This document shows positions 2,335 through 63,747 of a stretch of 64,000 nt of DNA, piece after piece. The stretch lies in the IMG/VR virus record IMGVR_UViG_2706794662_000007; one strand, 5' to 3'. A model generated the notes under the pieces. It saw only the letters and a program-made list of their open reading frames with translations. It was not told the DNA's origin and ran no database searches. The translations under genes and the position numbers were made by a program. The DNA comes from a virus (Duplodnaviria; Heunggongvirae; Uroviricota; Caudoviricetes). Positions within the stretch are counted from its first letter, which is position 1. Each line of letters starts with the position of its first letter.

Positions 2335-3408
2335 GTGGATATTGTCACCATGCGCATGAATAGACTTCCAGGATATGGCCTTCCCGAACTGGCTTTTTGG
2401 CCTCAGCCTAAATATGAACGGAATAAATGGTCGATGTTCTGTCTGAAACTCCGTAATGATGGAACCCTTGCTTGGTATCGGCGATATGTTGATCGTGGTA
2501 TGCCAAACCACGCTGTTGATGACGACTACGATAACTATCCTGAAGCAAGAAAAGCGGCATTAGAGCTGAATAAAAACGTGAGCTTTGACATTGAAAAACT
2601 TCCTCTATCTATGTTTCAAAAGAAGTCATTGCGTTTGAAAGTTGACAAAGCACTCAAAGCCAAATCACGTCTCATGGATGAAGAGTATATAATGCTCAAC
2701 GAAGCAATTAAGGCACACGCCAACGATCCGCGAGTGACATTAAATGAGTTAATAATTAACCCAGATTACGAAACTTTGCGTCAACCCCTTTTTGACGTGC
2801 TAAGCGAGATGCCTTACTTACATTTTGTTTTTCTTCCCAAATTCCAAGTTTCACTTCAACTCGTTGCTCCTAACACTTGGGAATGTTCATATAACAACAA
2901 AGCTAAGACAGCGAAGATCTGCTACCAAGAACGCATAGCCAGAGGTTTTGGTTTATCAGGTGCTGCACATTGGGGAAAAACAAAAGCGACTATTCGCTCA
3001 ATGCTTCTGCCGCGTGCTAACCGGTTACTGCAACTCGCCAGCGTAAAAAGAATGCTGGATGAAGCTCTCAGGAATGGGCAAAAGGTACTGGTTGTTGGCA
3101 ACTTTGTTTTCTGGTTTGAGGACAAAAATCAGGTAGGTTGGAGTGTTAAAGTTGCTAGCGAAAGCGAAACCACCTCAAGAGGCAATACGCTCTGGAAAGA
3201 AGGAACTATCATTTCAAAAAATCACGGTCGAATTGTCGTGCTGCCGTATACAAAAGAAAACGGTAAACATGTAAAAGGTTATACCAAGAATGCCCCTAAC
3301 GACGGCAATGCAATTCCGAGACATAAGGATGAGTATGTTGAGTTGCCCTTTGAAATTTTGGATGGTGACTTGATGTTCAGTCTGTTCGGTGAGCTTAACT
3401 ACGAATAG
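2335..3408 (+). CDS. hypothetical protein, 357 aa; AT-richer than flanks (cargo-like)
   Basis: ORF track; only plus-strand gene in a minus-strand region; no motif recognised. Confidence 0.5.
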   Translation: MDIVTMRMNRLPGYGLPELAFWPQPKYERNKWSMFCLKLRNDGTLAWYRRYVDRGMPNHAVDDDYDNYPEARKAALELNKNVSFDIEKLPLSMFQKKSLRLKVDKALKAKSRLMDEEYIMLNEAIKAHANDPRVTLNELIINPDYETLRQPLFDVLSEMPYLHFVFLPKFQVSLQLVAPNTWECSYNNKAKTAKICYQERIARGFGLSGAAHWGKTKATIRSMLLPRANRLLQLASVKRMLDEALRNGQKVLVVGNFVFWFEDKNQVGWSVKVASESETTSRGNTLWKEGTIISKNHGRIVVLPYTKENGKHVKGYTKNAPNDGNAIPRHKDEYVELPFEILDGDLMFSLFGELNYE

Positions 3409-3468
3409 CTTTCATAGAACGAAATATTTCTAAGGCTGTCCAATGCAGACCAGCCTTAGAGATTTATA

Positions 3469-3828
3469 TCAACCTTTCTTCATTAACTCGCGTTTAATTT
3501 CATCGGTACGCATCGTGACATCGGCAGCAGTGATCGCCTCGTTAAGCTTCACGATGTCCTCGATTTCCTGCGGTGACTTCTCTGCCAGATGGAAAATAGC
3601 AGCACGAATCACATCAGAGCGGGTGAATTTCTCGAAGCGAGGGATGAACTTCATCATCTCCAGCAGTTCGAAGTATTCGTCCTCCAGTGACATTGTGCGG
3701 CTTTTAATTTTCTCTTTGCCACGAGTCGGGCGTCCCTGTGGTCTGACTGGTTGGCGCAAAGGAGTTGTGTTCTTAGCCGGTGCATCAGACTCTTTGCGCT
3801 TTGCTAGGTCACCCATTTTCATGGACAT
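3469..3828 (-). CDS. small partition partner candidate (ParG/ribbon-helix-helix-like DNA-binding protein)
   Basis: 119 aa, basic N-terminus, start overlaps parA stop (ATGA-type junction at 3828). Confidence 0.35.
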   Translation of the reverse strand: MSMKMGDLAKRKESDAPAKNTTPLRQPVRPQGRPTRGKEKIKSRTMSLEDEYFELLEMMKFIPRFEKFTRSDVIRAAIFHLAEKSPQEIEDIVKLNEAITAADVTMRTDEIKRELMKKG

Positions 3829-4496
3829 TATTCTTCTTCCTCCAGACTCAACAGATAATCTACAAATTCTTCAAACTCGGCTTCCGCCTTTTTGTCGCGC
3901 TCGCTACCGGTCATTTCAAAGATAGAACGACCAGACTCTTCCGCATCATCATAGACGTTGCGGTTATATAGATTGACTGGCGCAGACTCGATGCCAAACG
4001 TCTCAACAATCTCTTTAGCCGCCAGAATGCGAGACACTTGTGATGGCAAAGCCGGGCACTGGTTCATGACCGCGCGGACCTTCACTTTATCGTTTACATT
4101 GCGAACATTGTCGATAATAGGATCGATGTCACGTAAAGATTTCAAATCACGACGCTTAGGACGCAGCGGGATAATGATAACGTCAGCCATCAGCATCGCT
4201 TGTCGCTGAATTTCGGAGTCGAAGCCACCAGCATCTACCACTACAAACTCAGCTCTACCCTGAAGCGATTTTAGGTGCTTAATGATGTCATCCTGAACGT
4301 ATGCAAAAGGAATCAGCTCAAGGTCTTCGTTCTGTCGACGGTCTTCACACCAGCTCGTTGTCGTGCGCTGAATATCTATATCGGTAATATAAACCTTCTT
4401 CTTCTTTTTGACTTTCAGGCAAACGGCAATTTGCTGGGCAACGGTGGATTTGCCAGGCCCGCCCTTTGTGCCGCCAACCACAAAGATCTTGGTCAT
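3828..4496 (-). CDS. parA: ParA/ParF-type partition ATPase
   Basis: deviant Walker A GGTKGGPGKST at N-terminus; 222 aa. Confidence 0.8.
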   Translation of the reverse strand: MTKIFVVGGTKGGPGKSTVAQQIAVCLKVKKKKKVYITDIDIQRTTTSWCEDRRQNEDLELIPFAYVQDDIIKHLKSLQGRAEFVVVDAGGFDSEIQRQAMLMADVIIIPLRPKRRDLKSLRDIDPIIDNVRNVNDKVKVRAVMNQCPALPSQVSRILAAKEIVETFGIESAPVNLYNRNVYDDAEESGRSIFEMTGSERDKKAEAEFEEFVDYLLSLEEEE

Positions 4497-17732: not shown

Positions 17733-18165
17733 AATGGATCACACCGTCGGCAAAATAATTCCGACGCGCATTACAGGCGTCATAACGTTTTGTGCAGTAA
17801 TCCGCACCAGACATAGACGTCTGCTGGTTATTTTTGTCGAAATATGGACCGGTATAGCCGCATTCTGGCCCTCGGTATTTCCACGGGCAGGTGTTTTTAA
17901 TGATCTGACGATACGGCAGTTGTACCCCCATCAAATCGAACACACTGGACAATTCAAACTCGACAACCTGATGAGTTTCGAGAGTTTTCTGTTCGATAAA
18001 CCACATTTCATCCGGGAAATGTTGGTTTGGATCTGCTGTTGGGTTGCCGTCTTTAAAATTAACGGCATCGAGGAAGCGAGCCAGCGTCATCTTGCGAATA
18101 ATGCGGCAGCCAACAAGATCGTCGTTCGCCTGAACTTCCGCAGAGACGGTTCCGGCAAAGTTCGN
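17698..18165 (-). CDS. minor tail protein L-like (5' part lost in N-run)
   Basis: C-terminal Cys cluster CPWKYRGPECGYTG...C..RYDAC; N-terminus masked. Confidence 0.65.
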   Translation of the reverse strand, partial: XNFAGTVSAEVQANDDLVGCRIIRKMTLARFLDAVNFKDGNPTADPNQHFPDEMWFIEQKTLETHQVVEFELSSVFDLMGVQLPYRQIIKNTCPWKYRGPECGYTGPYFDKNNQQTSMSGADYCTKRYDACNARRNYFADGVIHFGGFIGATRYG

Positions 18166-18414
18166 NNNNNNNNNNNNNNNNNNNNNNNNNNNNNNNNNNN
18201 NNNNNNNNNNNNNNNNNNNNNNNNNNNNNNNNNNNNNNNNNNNNNNNNNNNNNNNNNNNNNNNNNNNNNNNNNNNNNNNNNNNNNNNNNNNNNNNNNNNN
18301 NNNNNNNNNNNNNNNNNNNNNNNNNNNNNNNNNNNNNNNNNNNNNNNNNNNNNNNNNNNNNNNNNNNNNNNNNNNNNNNNNNNNNNNNNNNNNNNNNNNN
18401 NNNNNNNNNNNNNN
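18166..18414. other. run of 249 N (unresolved or masked bases)
   Basis: literal n characters. Confidence 1.
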
Positions 18415-29461: not shown

Positions 29462-31036
29462 TCACTCGTTCTCTTGAGTAGATGAGTCCCCATTCCCTCG
29501 GGGTTGATCTTGCCCGCTTTCTTGGGCTGCACCACGATCATAAGTAAGTACTGACTTATTTTCAAGGGTATTTAGATCATTTTTTGGAGGAAAATTCAAG
29601 AGATCTTTATCAAATTCCTTTTTCATCGCCTCAGTAATGTTCGGGAAAATCTTCTCAATAAGCATTTCCATCTGGTGACGACGTACAGAGTCCGGTGCCT
29701 GAAGTAATGACAGTTTCTCGGCAACAGAAAATTCATCAGTAAGGCCACGAATATCGAAACTTTCTGGATACGCAATTAAAGAGTGGTCTTCGTCCAGATC
29801 TACCCCCATCCATTTCGCAACCAGTAGCATGATTTGGCGTTCAGCCCTTTCCAGACGCTCTGCTTTTGTGACAAGCAAGCTATTTACACGCTGGAAGTCA
29901 TACATTTTTGCGGCACCAGATGAATTATCGATTCCCTGTGCGTTGTCCTGCTTCGTTCGCTCACCAGCTACACCAACTGAATGGTAGATTTCGTTAATCA
30001 CCGTCTTAATCGTAGTGATGATCATCTGAGCTTGTTTCGGGTCTGGTGACAGATAAAACGGCTGGTTTCCACCTTCAGAATCGTAGGTGAAGACTCGCTT
30101 TGTGCCCATTTCAAGCACTTTAGTGTGGTTTTCATCACCAGGTAAAAGCGACTGTACCGGTATAGCCAACTGGCTAAATGTCTGATCCTGAATAATGGCA
30201 TCAAGGTTTGACAGATAGTTTGCAACCGCACGATCAAGATAAGCGATATCATCGATCAACGATGGGCTGAAATACGGTGATTCACTTTCTCCAATACAAT
30301 CAACAGGAAACACAGGAACTACGCCGAGATTATGCTCACCGCTATCCTCTAAAATAACTTTTGCCTGACGGCGACCTGCTCCACCAGCGCCCTTCTTCAC
30401 TTCCTCACGGAACAGATACCACTCGTTTTGTGTCCACAGACGATAACGTTGGTATTCCTGACCTGTAGAAGTAAAAGGATCTGCGTCATCACGAGCGACT
30501 TCCACAATTAACGCCCACAACATATTCCCGTCGTCGTCCCATGCCACATCCAGCATTTGCTGAGGTGAAATCCAGTAGGCGTAGGCGCGAGCATCTTTCT
30601 TTTTCTCGTCAGCTACTGACTCAACATCACCACTCATCGTGCTATCGACAACAACCCATATGCGACCGTAAATAGACGACTGCAAATCAATAGCGGCCAT
30701 AAATGAGTCAATAGAGGCATTCTGGCGAGTCGCACGTTTCCAGAAATTGCGGATCTGCTCTGGTGCCTCTTCGATATTTCTATGAATGTCTTCTTTAAAG
30801 AGATATTTGTTGATGAGGTTTACCACCTCACGAGTGTGGTTGAAGCGATAAGCACGTTCAACTCGCTCCTTAAACTCCTGATCTCCCTCTTTAAAGTAAC
30901 GAAAGATATTGTCTGTAAACCAACCACGCCCGCCAGCGTAAGTGCTGGCGAGGAAGTCCCAATGTTCTTTTTTCTTTTCGTATTCCGGGTGGCGTCGCGC
31001 CACCAGATCCTTAATTTGTTTGTCGTTCAATTCCAT
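29462..31036 (-). CDS. portal protein
   Basis: 524 aa immediately downstream of TerL. Confidence 0.7.
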   Translation of the reverse strand: MELNDKQIKDLVARRHPEYEKKKEHWDFLASTYAGGRGWFTDNIFRYFKEGDQEFKERVERAYRFNHTREVVNLINKYLFKEDIHRNIEEAPEQIRNFWKRATRQNASIDSFMAAIDLQSSIYGRIWVVVDSTMSGDVESVADEKKKDARAYAYWISPQQMLDVAWDDDGNMLWALIVEVARDDADPFTSTGQEYQRYRLWTQNEWYLFREEVKKGAGGAGRRQAKVILEDSGEHNLGVVPVFPVDCIGESESPYFSPSLIDDIAYLDRAVANYLSNLDAIIQDQTFSQLAIPVQSLLPGDENHTKVLEMGTKRVFTYDSEGGNQPFYLSPDPKQAQMIITTIKTVINEIYHSVGVAGERTKQDNAQGIDNSSGAAKMYDFQRVNSLLVTKAERLERAERQIMLLVAKWMGVDLDEDHSLIAYPESFDIRGLTDEFSVAEKLSLLQAPDSVRRHQMEMLIEKIFPNITEAMKKEFDKDLLNFPPKNDLNTLENKSVLTYDRGAAQESGQDQPRGNGDSSTQENE

Positions 31037-41579: not shown

Positions 41580-41843
41580 NNNNNNNNNNNNNNNNNNNNN
41601 NNNNNNNNNNNNNNNNNNNNNNNNNNNNNNNNNNNNNNNNNNNNNNNNNNNNNNNNNNNNNNNNNNNNNNNNNNNNNNNNNNNNNNNNNNNNNNNNNNNN
41701 NNNNNNNNNNNNNNNNNNNNNNNNNNNNNNNNNNNNNNNNNNNNNNNNNNNNNNNNNNNNNNNNNNNNNNNNNNNNNNNNNNNNNNNNNNNNNNNNNNNN
41801 NNNNNNNNNNNNNNNNNNNNNNNNNNNNNNNNNNNNNNNNNNN
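41580..41843. other. run of 264 N
   Basis: literal n characters. Confidence 1.
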
Positions 41844-47095: not shown

Positions 47096-49034
47096 TTACT
47101 TAACCTGGTGGCCAGGTTTAGCACCAGCATCCGGGCTTAACAGGAAGATATCTTTCCCGCCAGGACCGGCAGCCATCACCATGCCTTCAGAGATACCGAA
47201 GCGCATTTTACGTGGTGCCAGGTTAGCCACCATAATGGTGTGACGACCAATCAGTGCCTGTGGATCTGGATAAGCGGAACGGATGCCTGAGAAGACATTA
47301 CGCTTTTCACCACCGAGATCCAGCGTCAGGCGAAGCAGTTTGTCAGAACCTTCGACAAACTCCGCGTTTTCAATCAGCGCCACACGCAGGTCAACTTTGG
47401 CGAAGTCGTCAAAGGTGATGGTTTCCTGAATCGGTTCGTCAGCCAGTGGGCCAGTTACCGGTGCAGCTGTGGCTTTCACTTCTTCTTTGGATGCTTCCAC
47501 CAGTGCTTCCACCTGTTTCATATCGATACGGTTATACAGTGCCTTGAACGGATTCACTTTATGGCCCAGAAGCGGTTGCTGGATACCATCCCAGGTCAGT
47601 TCTGTATTCAGGAATGCTTCTGCACGTTCAGTCAGTTTCGGCAGTACCGGTTTCAGGTACGTCATCAGCACGCGGAACAGGTTAATGCCCATAGAGCAAA
47701 TCGCCTGCAGATCTGCATCGCGACCTTCCTGCTTCGCCACCACCCACGGAGCCTGTTCATCGACATAGCGATTAGCCAGGTCAGCCAATGCCATGATTTC
47801 ACGGATAGCTTTACCAAATTCGCGGCTTTCCCATGCTTCGCCAATCACTTCAGCGGCATCAGTAAAGGTTTTGTACAGTTGCGGGTCAGCCAGTTCGCTT
47901 GTCAGCACGCCGTCAAAACGCTTGTTGATAAAGCCTGCATTACGGGAGGCCAGGTTAACCACTTTGTTCACGATATCGGCATTCACGCGCTGAACGAAAT
48001 CTTCCAGGTTGAGATCGATATCATCAATGCGCGAAGAGAGTTTCGCAGTGTAGTAGTAACGCAGGCTGTCAGCGTCAAAATGATTCAGCCAGGTGCTGGC
48101 TTTAATAAAGGTGCCGCGAGACTTGGACATCTTCGCGCCGTTCACCGTCACATAGCCGTGAACAAACAGGTTGGTCGGCTTGCGGAAGTTGCTGCCTTCC
48201 AGCATGGCAGGCCAGAACAGACTGTGGAAGTAAACGATATCTTTGCCGATGAAGTGGTACAGCTCGGCGGTGGAGTCTTTCTTCCAGTATTCGTCGAAGC
48301 TTACGCTGTCGCCGCGCTTGTCGCACAGATTCTTGAAAGAACCCATGTAGCCAATCGGCGCGTCCAGCCAGACGTAGAAATATTTGCCCGGCGCGTTCGN
48401 NNNNNNNNNNNNNNNNNNNNNNNNNNNNNNNNNNNNNNNNNNNNNNNNNNNNNNNNNNNNNNNNNNNNNNNNNNNNNNNNNNNNNNNNNNNNNNNNNNNN
48501 NNNNNNNNNNNNNNNNNNNNNNNNNNNNNNNNNNNNNNNNNNNNNNNNNNNNNNNNNNNNNNNNNNNNNNNNNNNNNNNNNNNNNNNNNNNNNNNNNNNN
48601 NNNNNNNNNNNNNNNNNNNNNNNNNNNNNNNNNNNNNNNNNNNNNNNNNNNNNNNNNNNNNNNNNNNNNNNNNNNNNNNNNNNNNNNNNNNNNNNNNNNN
48701 NNNNNNNNNNNNNNNNNNNNNNNNNNNNCTCTTCGCTGTGCGTCGAGTGATAGTTGTCATAGCTGATGTTAAAGCCTGCGAAATCAGTCTGATGTTCCTG
48801 ACTCATTTCGCCAATCATCTGTTCCGGTGTGATACCAAGCTGCTGTGCTTTCAGCATGATTGGCGTACCGTGGGCATCGTCGGCACAGATGAAATTAACC
48901 TCGTGGCCGCGCATTCGCTGGTAACGAACCCAGACATCAGCCTGGATGTGCTCCAGCATATGGCCGAGGTGGATTGAGCCGTTAGCGTACGGCAGCGCGC
49001 ACGTCACCAGAATTTTCTTCGCGACTTGGGTCAT
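47096..49034 (-). CDS. metG: methionine--tRNA ligase (interrupted by N-run; frame differs on the two sides of the mask)
   Basis: N-terminus [29 protein letters not shown] and C-terminus ...[24 protein letters not shown] recognised as enterobacterial MetRS. Confidence 0.9.
48390..48728. other. run of 339 N inside metG
   Basis: literal n characters. Confidence 1.
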
Positions 49035-50904: not shown

Positions 50905-51423
50905 CTAAAAATCAAANNNNNNNNNNNNNNNNNNNNNNNNNNNNNNNNNNNNNNNNNNNNNNNNNNNNNNNNNNNNNNNNNNNNNNNNNNNNNNNNNNNN
51001 NNNNNNNNNNNNNNNNNNNNNNNNNNNNNNNNNNNNNNNNNNNNNNNNNNNNNNNNNNNNNNNNNNNNNNNNNNNNNNNNNNNNNNNNNNNNNNNNNNNN
51101 NNNNNNNNNNNNNNNNNNNNNNNNNNNNNNNNNNNNNNNNNNNNNNNNNNNNNNNNNNNNNNNNNNNNNTTTAAAGGAAGATAGGTTCCCCATAGTAGCT
51201 GTCTGCCGTGCGCTCGTGTGAAATACCGGGCCATCTTCGGATTGCTATGCTGCTTAGGAGCGCCTGGTCTGTATGTCTGATACCCGGCCAACATCCCATC
51301 AAACCTGTATAGAGGGAATGTAACAACTCCTTCGCTTTCATCGATCCACTGTCTATATGGATGCACATCATAGCGGTAGTTACGAGTTAGCAAATGAGCT
51401 TCCAGCTTTCCAAATTTAGTCAT
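50905..51423 (-). CDS. hypothetical protein interrupted by N-run
   Basis: N-terminal part MTKFGKLEAHLLTRNYRYDVHPYRQWIDESEG... visible; start at internal Met. Confidence 0.4.
   Translation of the reverse strand: MTKFGKLEAHLLTRNYRYDVHPYRQWIDESEGVVTFPLYRFDGMLAGYQTYRPGAPKQHSNPKMARYFTRAHGRQLLWGTYLPLXXXXXXXXXXXXXXXXXXXXXXXXXXXXXXXXXXXXXXXXXXXXXXXXXXXXXXXXXXXXXXXXXXXXXXXXXXXXXXXXXXXXXFDF
50917..51169. other. run of 253 N
   Basis: literal n characters. Confidence 1.
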
Positions 51424-53489: not shown

Positions 53490-53739
53490 NNNNNNNNNNN
53501 NNNNNNNNNNNNNNNNNNNNNNNNNNNNNNNNNNNNNNNNNNNNNNNNNNNNNNNNNNNNNNNNNNNNNNNNNNNNNNNNNNNNNNNNNNNNNNNNNNNN
53601 NNNNNNNNNNNNNNNNNNNNNNNNNNNNNNNNNNNNNNNNNNNNNNNNNNNNNNNNNNNNNNNNNNNNNNNNNNNNNNNNNNNNNNNNNNNNNNNNNNNN
53701 NNNNNNNNNNNNNNNNNNNNNNNNNNNNNNNNNNNNNNN
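53490..53739. other. run of 250 N
   Basis: literal n characters. Confidence 1.
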
Positions 53740-57126: not shown

Positions 57127-57187
57127 ATGTTTTTCTCTTATCGTTTAGTTATTACATTCTTACACAAATTAAGTAAGTATTTACCTA

Positions 57188-58892
57188 TCATTTAACGCGT
57201 TTGAAAACGTATACGCTGACTGTGATCCCTGTGTCTTCAAACTCGTTGGTAAACGACTTCCCTCTGGCATAAACGTAATTATCCATCGTCATCCAGTCCA
57301 GTATTGGCGCNNNNNNNNNNNNNNNNNNNNNNNNNNNNNNNNNNNNNNNNNNNNNNNNNNNNNNNNNNNNNNNNNNNNNNNNNNNNNNNNNNNNNNNNNN
57401 NNNNNNNNNNNNNNNNNNNNNNNNNNNNNNNNNNNNNNNNNNNNNNNNNNNNNNNNNNNNNNNNNNNNNNNNNNNNNNNNNNNNNNNNNNNNNNNNNNNN
57501 NNNNNNNNNNNNNNNNNNNNNNNNNNNNNNNNNNNNNNNNNNNNNNNNNNNNNNNNNNNNNNNNNCCAGATCGGCGTTAATATAGGCCAGAAGATCCCCA
57601 CGTCCGGCTTGAGGCTCCAACAGCTTCTCACCAGGCTTCAATTCAGTGGCTCTGGCAACGTACTCAGCAATCAAGCGTGGGGTAGGGTAGAACTGGTGTG
57701 ATTTTGTATCCGGTATTAAACCGGTAGCCACAATCGTATTTAGCGTATGGCCGATCTCATACGGGAACTGCCAGTGCTTTTTCTCCTGCACGCCGCCAAT
57801 GAAGCTCAGTGTGCGCTCAAGCTCTTCCACCTGCGACTTCTGGAGAGCTGAATCAGAGAAGTACCATACGCCTTTGTCTTTGCTCAATCGCCCGTCACGA
57901 AGCGCAGTGCGAACCGGCACGGAGATCGTCTTCTGGATTAACCCGAACTGCTTTGGTGCCCGTGTTTTTGGCGCAGTTCGGCATGGCGCGGGGATTGCAG
58001 CAGGCATACTGTAAGCCAGCACCTCATTCAACTTCCAGGCCACGTCAGGATGTATTTCAAAGTGAACGTTGCCGTTCTTGAACATCTTCACGCGCATCAG
58101 ATTTCCATCGACGTTCATCCAGTCACCGGTCTGGCAGTCGTTTGCCCGATACGCAGCTGATAGCACCTCAGCAGTGCGGTTGATGGTAATAAATTCTTTG
58201 TGCGCGAAGAAATGAAGCAAGACACGCAGATCGTCGATGTAGTCCTCTTTGCGATAGTTCACGCTAACGCTGTCACGCCAGAAATCAGAAATGCAGTCAG
58301 CGATTATCAGACGCTCGCTGAAACCGTTTGTCTTATTTGTCTTGTGCGCAGGACTCAGCGCCTTAAACAAGCCATACACGCGCTCAGAGAGATATTTGTG
58401 CCTGTCATTCAGCAAATTAAGCATCGTTGGTATGACCGTTTCTGCTTTGAACTCCGGTACACCAACGAACTCTTTAACCTTCATCTGATAGCCGGTTCTG
58501 TCAGTTTTGATGACTTCCTGCTTGCCCTCGATAAATAGCTCACGCCACTCGTCGCGACGGGAAGCTGGCATGATCAGCAGAACGTTAGTCATATCCGTAA
58601 CCTTCCTCCAGTACTCGGCCCAAATATTCTGTTTCACCCATTCCAGATCGACGTTATCCAGCCAGACTCGATTCAAACGTGAGCGATCTTCATCTGGTCG
58701 GTGGTTTAGTCGAAGCAGGCGATTAATCATGTTGTGGCGTTCATCGCCATAAACGAAGTCGTGTACCTGATACATGAAGGAGATCTCTTTCTCGCACTCG
58801 GCCACAATTTCGTGGATGACGTTCATTTCCTGTCGATAGTCGATAGCAGTGTTTGAGCTGGCATCGCCCATGATGGAAAGGGCTGTATTCAT
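57188..58892 (-). CDS. gamma-class N6-adenine DNA methyltransferase-like protein with ~390-aa N-terminal extension (interrupted by N-run; C-terminal frame uncertain)
   Basis: motif X-like QFYPTPR and motif I-like LEPQAGRGDL just before mask. Confidence 0.5.
57311..57565. other. run of 255 N
   Basis: literal n characters. Confidence 1.
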
Positions 58893-61774: not shown

Positions 61775-62051
61775 TCGAACTGTCCTTGTTGTTTTTCTCC
61801 TTCACTAAAGGCCGTGCATTTTTCGCTTCGCGTGAAGAACCAGAGGCAACAATCGCCCACACGTTCGCAACAACTGACGCTTGATTATCTAAACGTTCAT
61901 TCAGCAACCGAACGGTAGTCTCTAGTTCATCAAGGCGTGACATAACACGACCGCTAAATAATTCGGCCAAAATTTGACGTAAAGAACGAGGACGTTTAGT
62001 TACAGAAGTGAAATAGGTTTGACGTGCCATGTGGACTCCATCCAGTGTCAT
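61536..62051 (-). CDS. hypothetical ORF; only N-terminal ~85 aa look protein-like
   Basis: overlaps 61523..61774 in another frame. Confidence 0.25.
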   Translation of the reverse strand: MTLDGVHMARQTYFTSVTKRPRSLRQILAELFSGRVMSRLDELETTVRLLNERLDNQASVVANVWAIVASGSSREAKNARPLVKEKNNKDSSNGKFSKKEAETNGLRSHYSFTGDGSRSSRSEPFDAGFIHHHTSVDDNYHHSSRATCHSGWDDGGCDTSSSSSYSGSCCD

Positions 62052-62175
62052 AAAGAGTTGCGGCTGGCAATCGCCAGCCGCCTTTCTCGTTCCATCCTGG
62101 AACTGTGTCTTACCGACACATTGTCATCCTGACGCCGATAAGATACATGATTTATAATGATAGGTAAACACTTAC

Positions 62176-62769
62176 TTACTGTTTGTTATAAACAAAACCA
62201 ATATCTTTCTTGTGAGGCATATCTGCTGCTGAAAAAGCTGCGATCTTCGCGAGTCGATCACATATTTCATTTTCACGATGCCCGGCGTGACCTTTAACCC
62301 ACTTCCAGCGAACATTATGTCGACTTGCGGCCTCATCCAGACGCTTCCACAGATCAACATTCTTTACCGGTTTTTTGTCAGAAGTCATCCATCCATTGCG
62401 TTTCCACCATTTCATCCACTGTGTCATGCCGTTTTTCAGATACTGGCTATCAGAGTGCAAAATAACGTTGCATGGATATTTCAAACGCTCCAGCCCGATA
62501 AGTGCCCCCATCATCTCCATGCGGTTATTGGTGGTGCTATGAAAACCATCTGAGAACTCGCGTTCCTCGCCACGATACTGGAGAACGATACCGTAACCGC
62601 CCGGGCCACCCGGATTTTTAAGGCAAGAGCCATCACTAAAGATTTTCACGGTTTTAAGCTGGGGATTGAACTCTACGACAGGCGTTGTGGGATTGGTGCG
62701 GGGAGAATTTTTGTTTTTGTCTTTTTTGCGAGTTTTTGCTTGCGGTCGGGCTGGTGTCTTCGTTGTCAT
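62176..62769 (-). CDS. ribonuclease HI homologue with basic N-terminal extension
   Basis: FSDGSC, NNRME, HSDSQY, ENEICD segments match RNase HI catalytic DEDD positions; start at [10 protein letters not shown]. Confidence 0.8.
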
Positions 62770-62892
62770 ATAAACTCCTGAATCAAGCGCCGCGCCGATT
62801 TTTCCTCGCGCGTGCGCACACGCGTGCGTGTTAATAATTATTAAAATAAACAAATTACTTCCCAGAACAGGTTTTTATAAACCTGAACTGAA

Positions 62893-62930
62893 CGAACGAA
62901 GTGAGTGAAGTTCACCTCGAACGAAGTGAG
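62893..62930. repeat. direct repeats CGAACGAAGTGAG (x2, 25 bp apart) flanking palindrome GTGAAGTTCAC
   Basis: read directly in 490-bp ORF-free region. Confidence 0.6.
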
Positions 62931-63350
62931 AGGTTGTCTTTTCAGGTAATACTCTCCCAGGGAGGTGAGTATAAAATTCCTCACCAACCTGGTCGTTTCA
63001 TAACCTGAAAAGCTATGGTCTAAGTCTACTGCCAGCTTAGACTTGGGAAGTTATGGATGACAGCACCCCAGAACCGAGATCTTCCCACACTTTATGAAGG
63101 GGAGTACTGGATTCAACCTCTCGAAACACCCCAGACTCGACAATCATAAAGTGACCCTTGTCTCCGCTCACTTTGGTTCCCCCTTCCCCGACACCTAAAC
63201 GGCACCGGTTCTACGCTGGTAGTGAGCTTTTTTAAACCTGACGCCAGTGACGCTTACCCCCACCCATCAGGTCGAGTCTCCAGTCTACGACTGGAAACTA
63301 TCAGATCTTAGCACTTACAATTCATCTTATGAATAGTTTGTACTTATCTA

Positions 63351-63605
63351 TCATTTCGATTGATTATTTTCTCGACCATGTAGTTGAACATTCAAGGCAA
63401 ACACCTCGTTGATCAACTCACCTAAAAGCTGTTCAACAAGTTCGCGATGCTCCCCAAGATGCAAGCACTTAATTGCCCACTCGTACAAGTTGAAAGCCTG
63501 CTCACGATCTTTCATCATTTCACGAGCCTGGGCCAGAAAATCGCTGTCTACGAGCGCAACGACATTAGTCGGGTATGACATGTTGGTTTCCTTAAAGTGG
63601 TTCAT
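63351..63605 (-). CDS. hypothetical protein, 84 aa
   Basis: ORF track. Confidence 0.4.
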   Translation of the reverse strand: MNHFKETNMSYPTNVVALVDSDFLAQAREMMKDREQAFNLYEWAIKCLHLGEHRELVEQLLGELINEVFALNVQLHGRENNQSK

Positions 63606-63686
63606 AAAATCGATTTTAAAGCGTCTGGGAAGGGGGTCTAGTGGATTCTGTAGTGATGTTCAGGTCTGGAGTCTCTGATACAAAAC

Positions 63687-63747
63687 AGCCTGCTTCCGTA
63701 TATTAATAATTAATATGTAGTTATTTATATATATACAGAAGCAGGCT
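63687..63747. repeat. ~60-bp palindrome, copy C
   Basis: AGCCTGCTTCCGTATAT...ATATATACAGAAGCAGGCT. Confidence 0.75.

Follow-up and report, generated by a model that had tools for sequence, protein, structure and literature searches.

The 64,000-nucleotide (nt) stretch of viral DNA analysed here (IMG/VR record IMGVR_UViG_2706794662_000007, Caudoviricetes; hereafter the window) contains, between an RNase HI gene (rnhA) and a small upstream open reading frame (ORF), a gap of 581 bp (62770-63350) that holds only short, non-conserved ORFs. Our analysis indicates that this gap very probably represents an independently transcribed, structured RNA, and sequence comparison places this RNA of ~450 nt in a new family, outside Rfam. 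Taken as a whole, the observations are probably best explained by an RNA gene, the product of which is a free, folded RNA expressed in lysogeny. Over 62100-63700 the window shares 99.9% identity with Escherichia phage CMS-2020a, as against 78-82% with Salmonella phage SSU5 and with Klebsiella phage-plasmids; these values define it as an SSU5/pHCM2-type phage-plasmid. The first-pass annotation, made from the sequence alone, had described an ORF-free region of ~490 bp, rich in direct repeats and hairpins, at this location; the region is real though longer than proposed, and its repeats and hairpins were recovered within ~10 nt of the places given.

The element is both widespread and strongly conserved. 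A blastn search with the gap alone retrieved 687 PLSDB plasmids at 86-100% identity, from Klebsiella, Escherichia, Enterobacter, Salmonella, Citrobacter, Cronobacter and others. It is present in 232 of 5,426 complete E. coli genomes (4.3%), residing on ~110-kb plasmids in 232 of 234 places, and no RefSeq annotation is found at the element in any record listed for these genomes. All 83 related loci first collected (designated by L numbers) possess it with the same sharp edges. In a comparison of ten diverse loci (Escherichia, Salmonella, Klebsiella and Enterobacter), identity to the window amounts to 89-96% for the core (62883-63276), 76-80% for rnhA, 72-78% for the upstream ORF and 43-68% for the two spacers. 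Furthermore, the element is intact where rnhA is truncated or replaced (locus L005, and locus L008, where betT is next door).

For the structural analysis, 59 distinct minus-strand sequences were aligned (alignment A1) and folded with RNAalifold. Three sequences in A1 (L019, L027 and L029) are mosaics, in which an E. coli-type promoter, 5' hairpin and 3' tail are combined with SSU5-type internal segments (columns ~117-131, 282 and 304-305); these sequences indicate probable homologous recombination between lineages inside the conserved block.

The predicted transcription unit is delimited on both sides. Its promoter combines an extended -10 element (63315-63305, AGTGCTAAGAT) and, 17 nt further upstream, a -35 element of the form TTnAnA. 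In the 59 distinct sequences the pattern T-A-n-n-A-T is invariant and the adjacent TG or TTG is kept, while the 74 nt upstream of the core are just 43-56% identical across lineages around this kept promoter. A simple consensus promoter scan missed it. The transcript would begin with a hairpin for which several variants were observed (CCAGUC/GACUGG, CCGGA/UCCGG, GCUGGCAGAU/AUCUGCCAGC and AUUUCGA/UCGAAAU), and three of the six pairs of this helix (helix 1) have changed on both sides, between CG, UA, AU and GC types. Towards the other end, the 3' hairpin (helix 18) displays double changes from U-A to G-C in eight sequences, and the core of the 3' tail, UCUGGGAAGUA (A1 columns 450-460), is invariant in 59 of 59. 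The Y-shaped domain predicted for the last 100 nt ends 2-3 nt short of the U-run and is closed by pairing of the tail GAAGU with ACUUC. The U-run itself occurs in most lineages and is missing in a Klebsiella subtype (L005/L006). Both copies of the direct repeat are accommodated by this fold: the second copy of CUCACUUCGUUCG, in RNA order, provides the 3' strand of an invariant hairpin (CGAGGUGA/UCACUUCG), and the ACUUC of the first takes part in the stem that closes the 3' domain. The coordinates of these and neighbouring features are collected in Table 1.

Table 1. Features of the RNA locus and its surroundings (window coordinates)
Feature	Position	Strand	Description
RNA promoter	63305-63333	-	-35 TTCATA 63333-63328, 17-nt spacer, TG 63313-63312, -10 TAAGAT 63310-63305; predicted start ~63298
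5' hairpin	63280-63294	-	CCAGUC GUA GACUGG; sequence varies per lineage, always pairs; starts ~7 nt past the -10 element
Conserved RNA core	62886-63276	-	~390 nt, 16 helices; includes all hairpins and repeats of the first-pass annotation
Hairpin	63022-63027 with 63039-63044		AAGTCT with AGACTT
Hairpin	62964-62969 with 62980-62985		GGTGAG with CTCACC
Direct repeat CGAACGAAGTGAG	62893-62905 and 62918-62930	plus-strand reading	exact, 13 nt, 25 bp apart; CUCACUUCGUUCG in the RNA
Repeat AACCTGAA	62880 and 63002
3' hairpin	62868-62885	-	CAGG...CCUG; loop and upper stem vary, pairing kept
RNA 3' tail	62843-62868	-	GUUCUGGGAAGUAA 62868-62855, then U-rich run 62854-62843; predicted 3' end ~62843-62850
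A+T block	62830-62859		90% A+T (AT profile)
Spacer between RNA and rnhA	62770-62842	-	rnhA ribosome-binding site CAGGAG; GC-rich hairpin region (palindrome I2); 25-nt alternating tract 62807-62831
rnhA	62176-62769	-	E. coli-type RNase HI, 197 aa, ATG at 62769; catalytic domain aa 38-180
rnhA N-terminal tail	62659-62769	-	aa 1-37, Lys/Arg/Pro-rich
Imperfect palindrome	63330-63349	-	immediately follows the upstream ORF's stop codon; TAGATAAGTACAAACTAT in the window, GGTAAGTACTTACC in SSU5
Upstream small ORF	63351-63605	-	PHROG 5343; likely true start ATG 63581; syntenic anchor of the RNA slot in all lineages

The consensus fold predicted from A1 comprises 134 pairs in 18 helices, with 99.8% of the alignment cells forming standard pairs. 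Eleven pairs have changed on both sides, as compared to 8.3 ± 0.8 in shuffled alignments (none of 500 reached 11) and 2-4 in controls in which the partners were slid, and the number of double-change cells is 139 versus 35.5 ± 6.6 after shuffling. These compensatory changes sit in helices 1, 2, 3, 8, 13 and 18. The one-sided changes are all from U-A to U-G, or from G-U to G-C or A-U. Moreover, the shared helices contain 854 G·U and only three A·C cells when read on the minus strand, and eight pairs are invariant G·U; all of these would be mismatches on the plus strand, which argues for a minus-strand RNA. The RNAalifold energies and pair counts are consistent with this orientation (sense versus antisense: -257 versus -220 kcal/mol, 14 versus 9 double-change pairs, and 11 versus 91 A·C cells), and both strands fold ~3.5 standard deviations below dinucleotide shuffles. 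A plus-strand RNA, for which GCTCAC...GTGAGC followed by T6 might have served as a terminator, was considered and dropped, since the one-sided changes leave G·U pairs in a minus-strand reading but A·C in a plus-strand one, and the conserved promoter lies on the minus strand.

The gap does not appear to encode a protein. Indels of 1-2 nt in the core break every ORF and the frames differ between lineages; these frame-shifting indels, together with the lack of any conserved ORF, exclude a conserved peptide on either strand. The scans for known RNAs that the first-pass annotation had suggested were negative at every threshold: none of the 4,227 models of Rfam 15 gave a gathering-level match in the whole window, matches over the region at E <= 10 were just chance hits below 25 bits to eukaryotic or viral models (microRNA, small nucleolar RNA and long non-coding RNA), and neither a tRNA nor a tmRNA was detected by ARAGORN. 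The literature searched yielded no description of this RNA. The sequence CTGCCAGCTTAGA bears a likeness to a type I-F CRISPR repeat, which we take to be a coincidence (it lies on the wrong strand and is without a Cas6f stem-loop).

The coding question also bears on whether the locus could be a type I toxin-antitoxin or small-protein locus, i.e., a structured mRNA of ~400 nt for a short peptide in the manner of hok/sok. Known loci of this kind are plasmid-borne and produce constitutive, highly structured transcripts of similar size, and databases annotate small coding sequences (CDSs) here, for example CYRAN_81 of phage Cyrano. Yet the sense strand contains neither an ATG-initiated nor a hydrophobic ORF, each candidate ORF shifts its frame or length through 1-2-nt indels, and Rfam returned no Sok-type match. 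Hence, we consider this explanation extremely improbable.

Published transcriptomic data allow the predicted transcript to be assessed in lysogens. The element recurs with 97% identity in phage Cyrano (pLF82), and CYRAN_81, a 44-codon 'hypothetical protein' on the gene strand that we regard as a spurious CDS, falls inside it. The list of transcribed genes for LF82 lysogens includes CYRAN_81, with a signal 12 times that of the local background (PMC9928086 Table 1). Its normalised count is 117, as compared to 9.5 for the upstream CYRAN_80, 8.4 for the RNase H gene CYRAN_82 and 96 for the putative repressor (PMC9928086 S1 Table). In 10 of 10 samples it lies above both neighbours (log2 values of 6.8-10.35 versus 2.6-5.8), and the highest values were recorded for bacteria inside macrophages at 6 h (PMC9928086). 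By our re-reading of these counts, the CYRAN_81 signal is 12-14 times that of both neighbours. The expression is thus the pattern predicted for an autonomous transcript that is bounded on both sides, in the plasmid-prophage state. A structured RNA was one of the possibilities that the first-pass annotation had offered, with the proviso that expression data might reveal no RNA product; published RNA-seq does show a signal and, with the conserved promoter, the covariation and the strand-specific G·U pairs, it backs that proposal. In the same data set, the top Cyrano transcript in lysogens by a wide margin is CYRAN_43 (Cyrano OV696614 40268-40822), annotated as a 'hypothetical protein' and located beside the integrase and repressor, at 723 times the background (PMC9928086). 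This locus could be another mis-annotated RNA or a moron.

Other phage-plasmids fill the same slot with unrelated sequences. Plasmids in which the small ORF is just 43-49% identical retain the synteny of small ORF, a gap of ~570-650 nt and RNase H. In 30 Klebsiella plasmids the gap contains a second element of ~430 nt, which we term type B as opposed to the type A of the window (L084 2621-3190; L085 3238-3887; L087-L096). In type B the promoter reads TTTACT-17-TATGAT, the 5' hairpin shows compensating changes, the invariant blocks are long and the terminator is canonical. The predicted type B fold of 133 pairs includes 12 with double changes (10 sequences) and 173 G·U versus 12 A·C cells. An Rfam scan of type B found nothing. 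A scan of species-representative genomes yielded only two loci, and a metagenome scan added 63, all of type A or B except L163 and L164, the latter ending at a contig end. L163 shares a ~330-nt non-coding block with one other Morganellaceae phage-plasmid, near the same small ORF (L086 ~3880-4260; L163 ~3290-3640); in this tentative type C lineage the RNase H gene is not adjacent. No homology was detected between types A, B and C, either with nhmmer or with Smith-Waterman comparison against shuffles (z <2). As the type A RNA evolves more slowly than the proteins, this missing similarity points to cassette replacement and not to divergence, which suggests an exchangeable cassette with a lineage-specific partner.

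The possibility that the conserved unit is a DNA-level element (an array of protein-binding sites, a linker for recombination where two modules meet, or a site for packaging or partition), with transcription and RNA structure being incidental, can be weighed against these results. Unpaired positions are conserved as well as paired ones, long stretches are 100% identical, the block contains E. coli/SSU5-type mosaics, and it possesses two exact 13-bp direct repeats. However, the compensatory changes and the G·U to A·C ratio of 854:3 are unexplained at the DNA level, a dedicated promoter and a 5' hairpin that is conserved in structure only flank the block, the transcript attains the level of the prophage repressor, and the unrelated type B shows the same RNA-gene layout. 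A DNA-level element is, therefore, very unlikely.

The mechanism that we propose for the RNA gene is as follows. The host sigma-70 RNA polymerase would start at the extended -10 promoter on the minus strand, at ~63298, and produce a transcript of ~450 nt, mostly stopping at the Y-shaped 3' domain and U-rich tail at ~62845. This transcript would open with a protective hairpin, fold into ~18 helices with long invariant loops and junctions, and accumulate in lysogens, in which the phage persists in plasmid form and the flanking genes are silent. The transcription, folding and accumulation steps are either directly observed or strongly inferred. The RNA would then bind a protein or other macromolecule via its shape and its invariant single-stranded segments, and could thereby serve as a lysogeny-expressed 'RNA moron' or maintenance factor. 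That the RNA is free, folded and trans-acting, with a protein or other partner, is plausible though somewhat short of probable.

Several observations weigh against this proposal. Covariation backs only six of the 18 helices, the others being invariant, and the antisense strand also folds well (z = -3.4, with 98% paired in its own best fold). The authors of the transcriptomic study discuss antisense transcripts, implying stranded libraries (PMC9928086); the strand-specificity of the gene counts is nevertheless unconfirmed. The 3' end is no canonical terminator and, in the Klebsiella L005/L006 subtype without the U-run, the RNA may be a mere 5' leader of rnhA. Furthermore, in an alternative pairing (I4) the invariant 3' tail (62854-62864) is predicted to pair instead with 63044-63054, which hints at a cis-acting switch. 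Replacement by unrelated RNAs would be unexpected if the partner were a universal host factor. Finally, the trans-acting, protein-binding mechanism is arrived at by exclusion.

Some of these points feed into the main rival explanation, in which the RNA acts in cis, as the leader or attenuator of the early operon that begins near rnhA: a large sensor domain would choose between the 3' terminator, as the default in lysogeny, and an alternative pairing that permits read-through into rnhA and the genes beyond it, in the manner of a riboswitch or of the premature termination known from P4 and N15. The RNA is indeed located directly upstream of rnhA on the same strand, and the abundant leader with 14-fold less rnhA in the RNA-seq data is the pattern of an attenuator in its OFF state. 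The 3' tail UGGGAAGUAAU can pair either with ACUUC, forming a terminator-like stem, or with the internal AUAACUUCCCA, which otherwise pairs with the upstream UGGGAAG, and in the Klebsiella subtype that lacks the U-run read-through must happen. On the other hand, the element remains intact where rnhA is lost or replaced, and in type B a strong canonical terminator closes the RNA ~100 nt ahead of RNase H. The downstream genes vary by lineage, with Ant or Rha present in some and not among the next genes here. The near-invariant ~400 nt are far larger than known attenuators, nothing suggests a ligand class, and the alternative pairing is invariant, so that no covariation bears on it. We regard a cis-acting leader as unlikely.

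Long antisense pairing is likewise an unlikely mode of action for this RNA. In the 100 kb of SSU5, complementary runs of at least 13 nt (G·U tolerated) were no more frequent than in shuffled controls; the downstream 3.8-4 kb contain 3-6 complementary 9-mers versus 6.5-6.9 expected, and exact complementary 11-mers in the window occur at about the level of chance (roughly 14 by hand estimate). A blastn search of the 5,426 E. coli genomes revealed no antisense target, the only match being one of 31 nt in 28 chromosomes. This match, to RNA positions 218-248 (90% identity, E ~2), falls in an unannotated spot, for example NZ_CP027579.1 4685144-4685174, and is probably chance or a prophage fragment. 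The lack of antisense targets above controls favours a free, folded, trans-acting RNA.

An immunity or operator region, another of the initial suggestions, is unsupported in the form proposed, given that no antisense target was found in either the downstream operon or the phage genome and that the palindrome beside the promoter recurs genome-wide. The motif TAAGTA-NN-TACTTA has nine matches in the window with at most one mismatch, against 0.07 expected (2074, 18466, 24954, 29541-29558, 36569, 43608, 57170-57187, 62161-62178 and 63330-63349). In SSU5 it occurs, as GGTAAGTACTTACC, at more than 15 sites (L098/L099). For many genes, a copy sits in the short gap that immediately follows the stop codon. 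The motif has the look of an intercistronic signal used throughout the genomes of SSU5-like phages, whether for processing, for weak termination or as the site of a regulator. The promoter-side palindrome was accordingly rejected as a private operator, being one copy of this motif.

The proximity of RNase HI had also led to the proposal of a primer-processing origin. The RNA would then be a replication pre-primer, or part of an R-loop origin: rich in G, it would remain paired with the DNA near its 3' end, beside the AT-rich block, to be cut by phage or host RNase HI and extended by a DNA polymerase, as in ColE1, T7, T4 and mitochondrial systems. The element offers a structured RNA of ~450 nt that has its own promoter and shows G clusters and a GC skew of +0.14. 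It is set in the phage DNA-metabolism cluster directly upstream of RNase HI (types A and B), with a 90% A+T block and a Z-DNA-prone tract past its 3' end. Unrelated, lineage-specific sequences in a fixed slot are also reminiscent of ColE1-type replicons, among which primer RNAs are diverse. However, the RNA matches neither Rfam RNAI nor any other family, and no conserved antisense promoter was found, a consensus scan having revealed no opposite-strand promoter inside the element. The terminator-like end and the covariation over the whole length are what a free RNA would show, and expression occurs in the quiescent plasmid state, in which the surrounding replication genes are silent. MOB-suite types nearly all of the plasmids as IncFIB or another rep-cluster replicon, and the rep-type gene of SSU5 ('replication helicase') lies ~18 kb away, so another replicon is present. 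Searches for DnaA or integration host factor (IHF) boxes and for a cumulative GC-skew inflection gave nothing. Moreover, rnhA is dispensable for retention of the element: the persistence of the RNA in L005 and L008 without an intact rnhA argues against an RNase-H-linked origin, and the tentative type C lineage lacks an adjacent RNase H. The proposal is thus unsupported on balance, and we deem such an origin improbable. We think of the adjacent RNase HI as a neighbour by synteny and not as a partner on which the RNA depends.

The slot as a whole invites a broader, rather doubtful interpretation. The position between the small ORF and RNase HI might house a new class of large RNAs of ~430-450 nt, comprising at least two and probably three unrelated families with the same layout. 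These might act as lineage-specific determinants of the life cycle, either in an RNA-primed or RNA-controlled start of replication that is handled by the phage RNase HI, or as an RNA switch or ribonucleoprotein with a role in maintaining lysogeny or in protecting the host. If true, there would be an unseen RNA layer in an element family that spreads resistance genes in Enterobacteriaceae.

All genes flanking the RNA locus are on the minus strand, in a long DNA-metabolism operon with the order thymidylate synthase, dihydrofolate reductase, 3'-5' exonuclease, Dam methylase, small ORF, gap, RNase H, TerB and others. The product of rnhA scores 152.5 bits against Pfam PF00075 RNase_H (cut-off 25.8; residues 40-178) and matches PHROG 531 'Rnase H' at 1.5e-80, while its residues 38-180 align to 2-143 of the E. 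coli RNase HI structures (PDB 1rnh family; E ~1e-62). The motifs FSDGS, NNRMEM, HSDSQY, GHAGH and NEICDRLA are present, and D10, E48, D70, H124 and D134 (E. coli numbering; alignment including 4ly7_A) are thus kept. Relative to E. coli RNase HI (rnhA; PDB 1RNH, 2RN2), the catalytic domain is ~60% identical with all DEDD and His residues retained, and the phage enzyme differs by an additional N-terminal tail of 37 aa. The PDB alignment gave no counterpart of this tail in any solved chain, and it is poorly conserved (47-60% nucleotide identity among lineages retaining rnhA). The initial description of an RNase HI with four DEDD positions and a basic N-terminal tail is, therefore, borne out by the Pfam score and the structure alignment, and by its sequence the phage RNase H is an ordinary member of the family.

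The spacer between the RNA and rnhA is moderately conserved, at 56-68% identity in lineages with an intact rnhA and 38% in L008, where the downstream DNA is replaced. The alternating purine-pyrimidine tract that had been placed at 62797-62820 does exist, ~10 nt away from that position (Table 1). This Z-DNA-prone (CG/CA)n tract and the GC-rich hairpin (together 62797-62831) lie just upstream of the rnhA ribosome-binding site and are conserved across type A lineages; in L008 the homology runs on through the CG tract though rnhA is replaced. Tract and hairpin may be a separate regulatory element. Downstream of rnhA, a match to the CsrB/RsmB model (62034-62134, minus strand; 17.6 bits versus a gathering score of 71, E = 0.059) is almost certainly due to chance. 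The window also contains six masked runs of N, 1,601 bases in total (18165-18414, 41580-41843, 48400-48728, 50917-51169, 53490-53739 and 57311-57565), one of them within an ORF of 537 aa (57279-58892), where it is translated as X's.

SSU5/pHCM2-like phage-plasmids are common in clinical Enterobacteriaceae, and their best-conserved 400 bases are either unannotated or mis-annotated as tiny hypothetical proteins. To our knowledge, few bacterial RNAs are this large, structured and constrained. Those large bacterial RNAs that have been solved are mostly ribozymes, ribonucleoproteins or unusual assemblies. Expression at the level of a repressor in lysogens, and the rise inside macrophages, imply that the RNA could affect plasmid maintenance, induction or host physiology. 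Furthermore, the swapping of unrelated RNAs into the same slot constitutes a natural experiment for finding its function.

The RNA may be compared with several known systems. It resembles hok/sok in being a plasmid-borne, highly folded and constitutive transcript of ~400 nt, but differs in having no conserved toxin reading frame and no detected antisense gene. As with ColE1 RNA II/RNA I, it is a promoter-driven plasmid RNA of ~500 nt, here with an adjacent RNase HI gene and lineage-specific sequences; in contrast to ColE1, it has neither an antisense RNA I nor a match to the RNAI model, its 3' end is terminator-like, the plasmids already possess a typed replicon (mostly IncFIB), and the element is kept without rnhA. 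In its expression pattern, the RNA is closest to the plasmid-prophage immunity RNAs P1/P7 c4, N15 CA and P4 CI, which are likewise expressed in lysogens by a constitutive promoter heading a phage-plasmid operon that is silent apart from them. In some lineages the operon downstream of our element holds an antirepressor (SSU5_093 Ant, or Rha); Ant was not recognised among nine genes checked around the element in the lineage of the window (seven of them downstream). Unlike these immunity RNAs, however, it is about five times larger, matches no C4 model and has no complementarity to the downstream operon. In kind, the RNA is closest to the large prophage-associated RNAs GOLLD and ROOL (Rfam also includes OLE, HEARO and raiA). 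In common with this group, it exceeds 400 nt, is multi-helical, is conserved in sequence beyond the needs of pairing, and is found on a temperate mobile element as a transcription unit of its own. The present RNA differs from them in matching none of their models at E <= 10, in having Enterobacteriaceae phage-plasmids as hosts and not lying beside tRNAs, and in being replaced by unrelated RNAs at a fixed locus.

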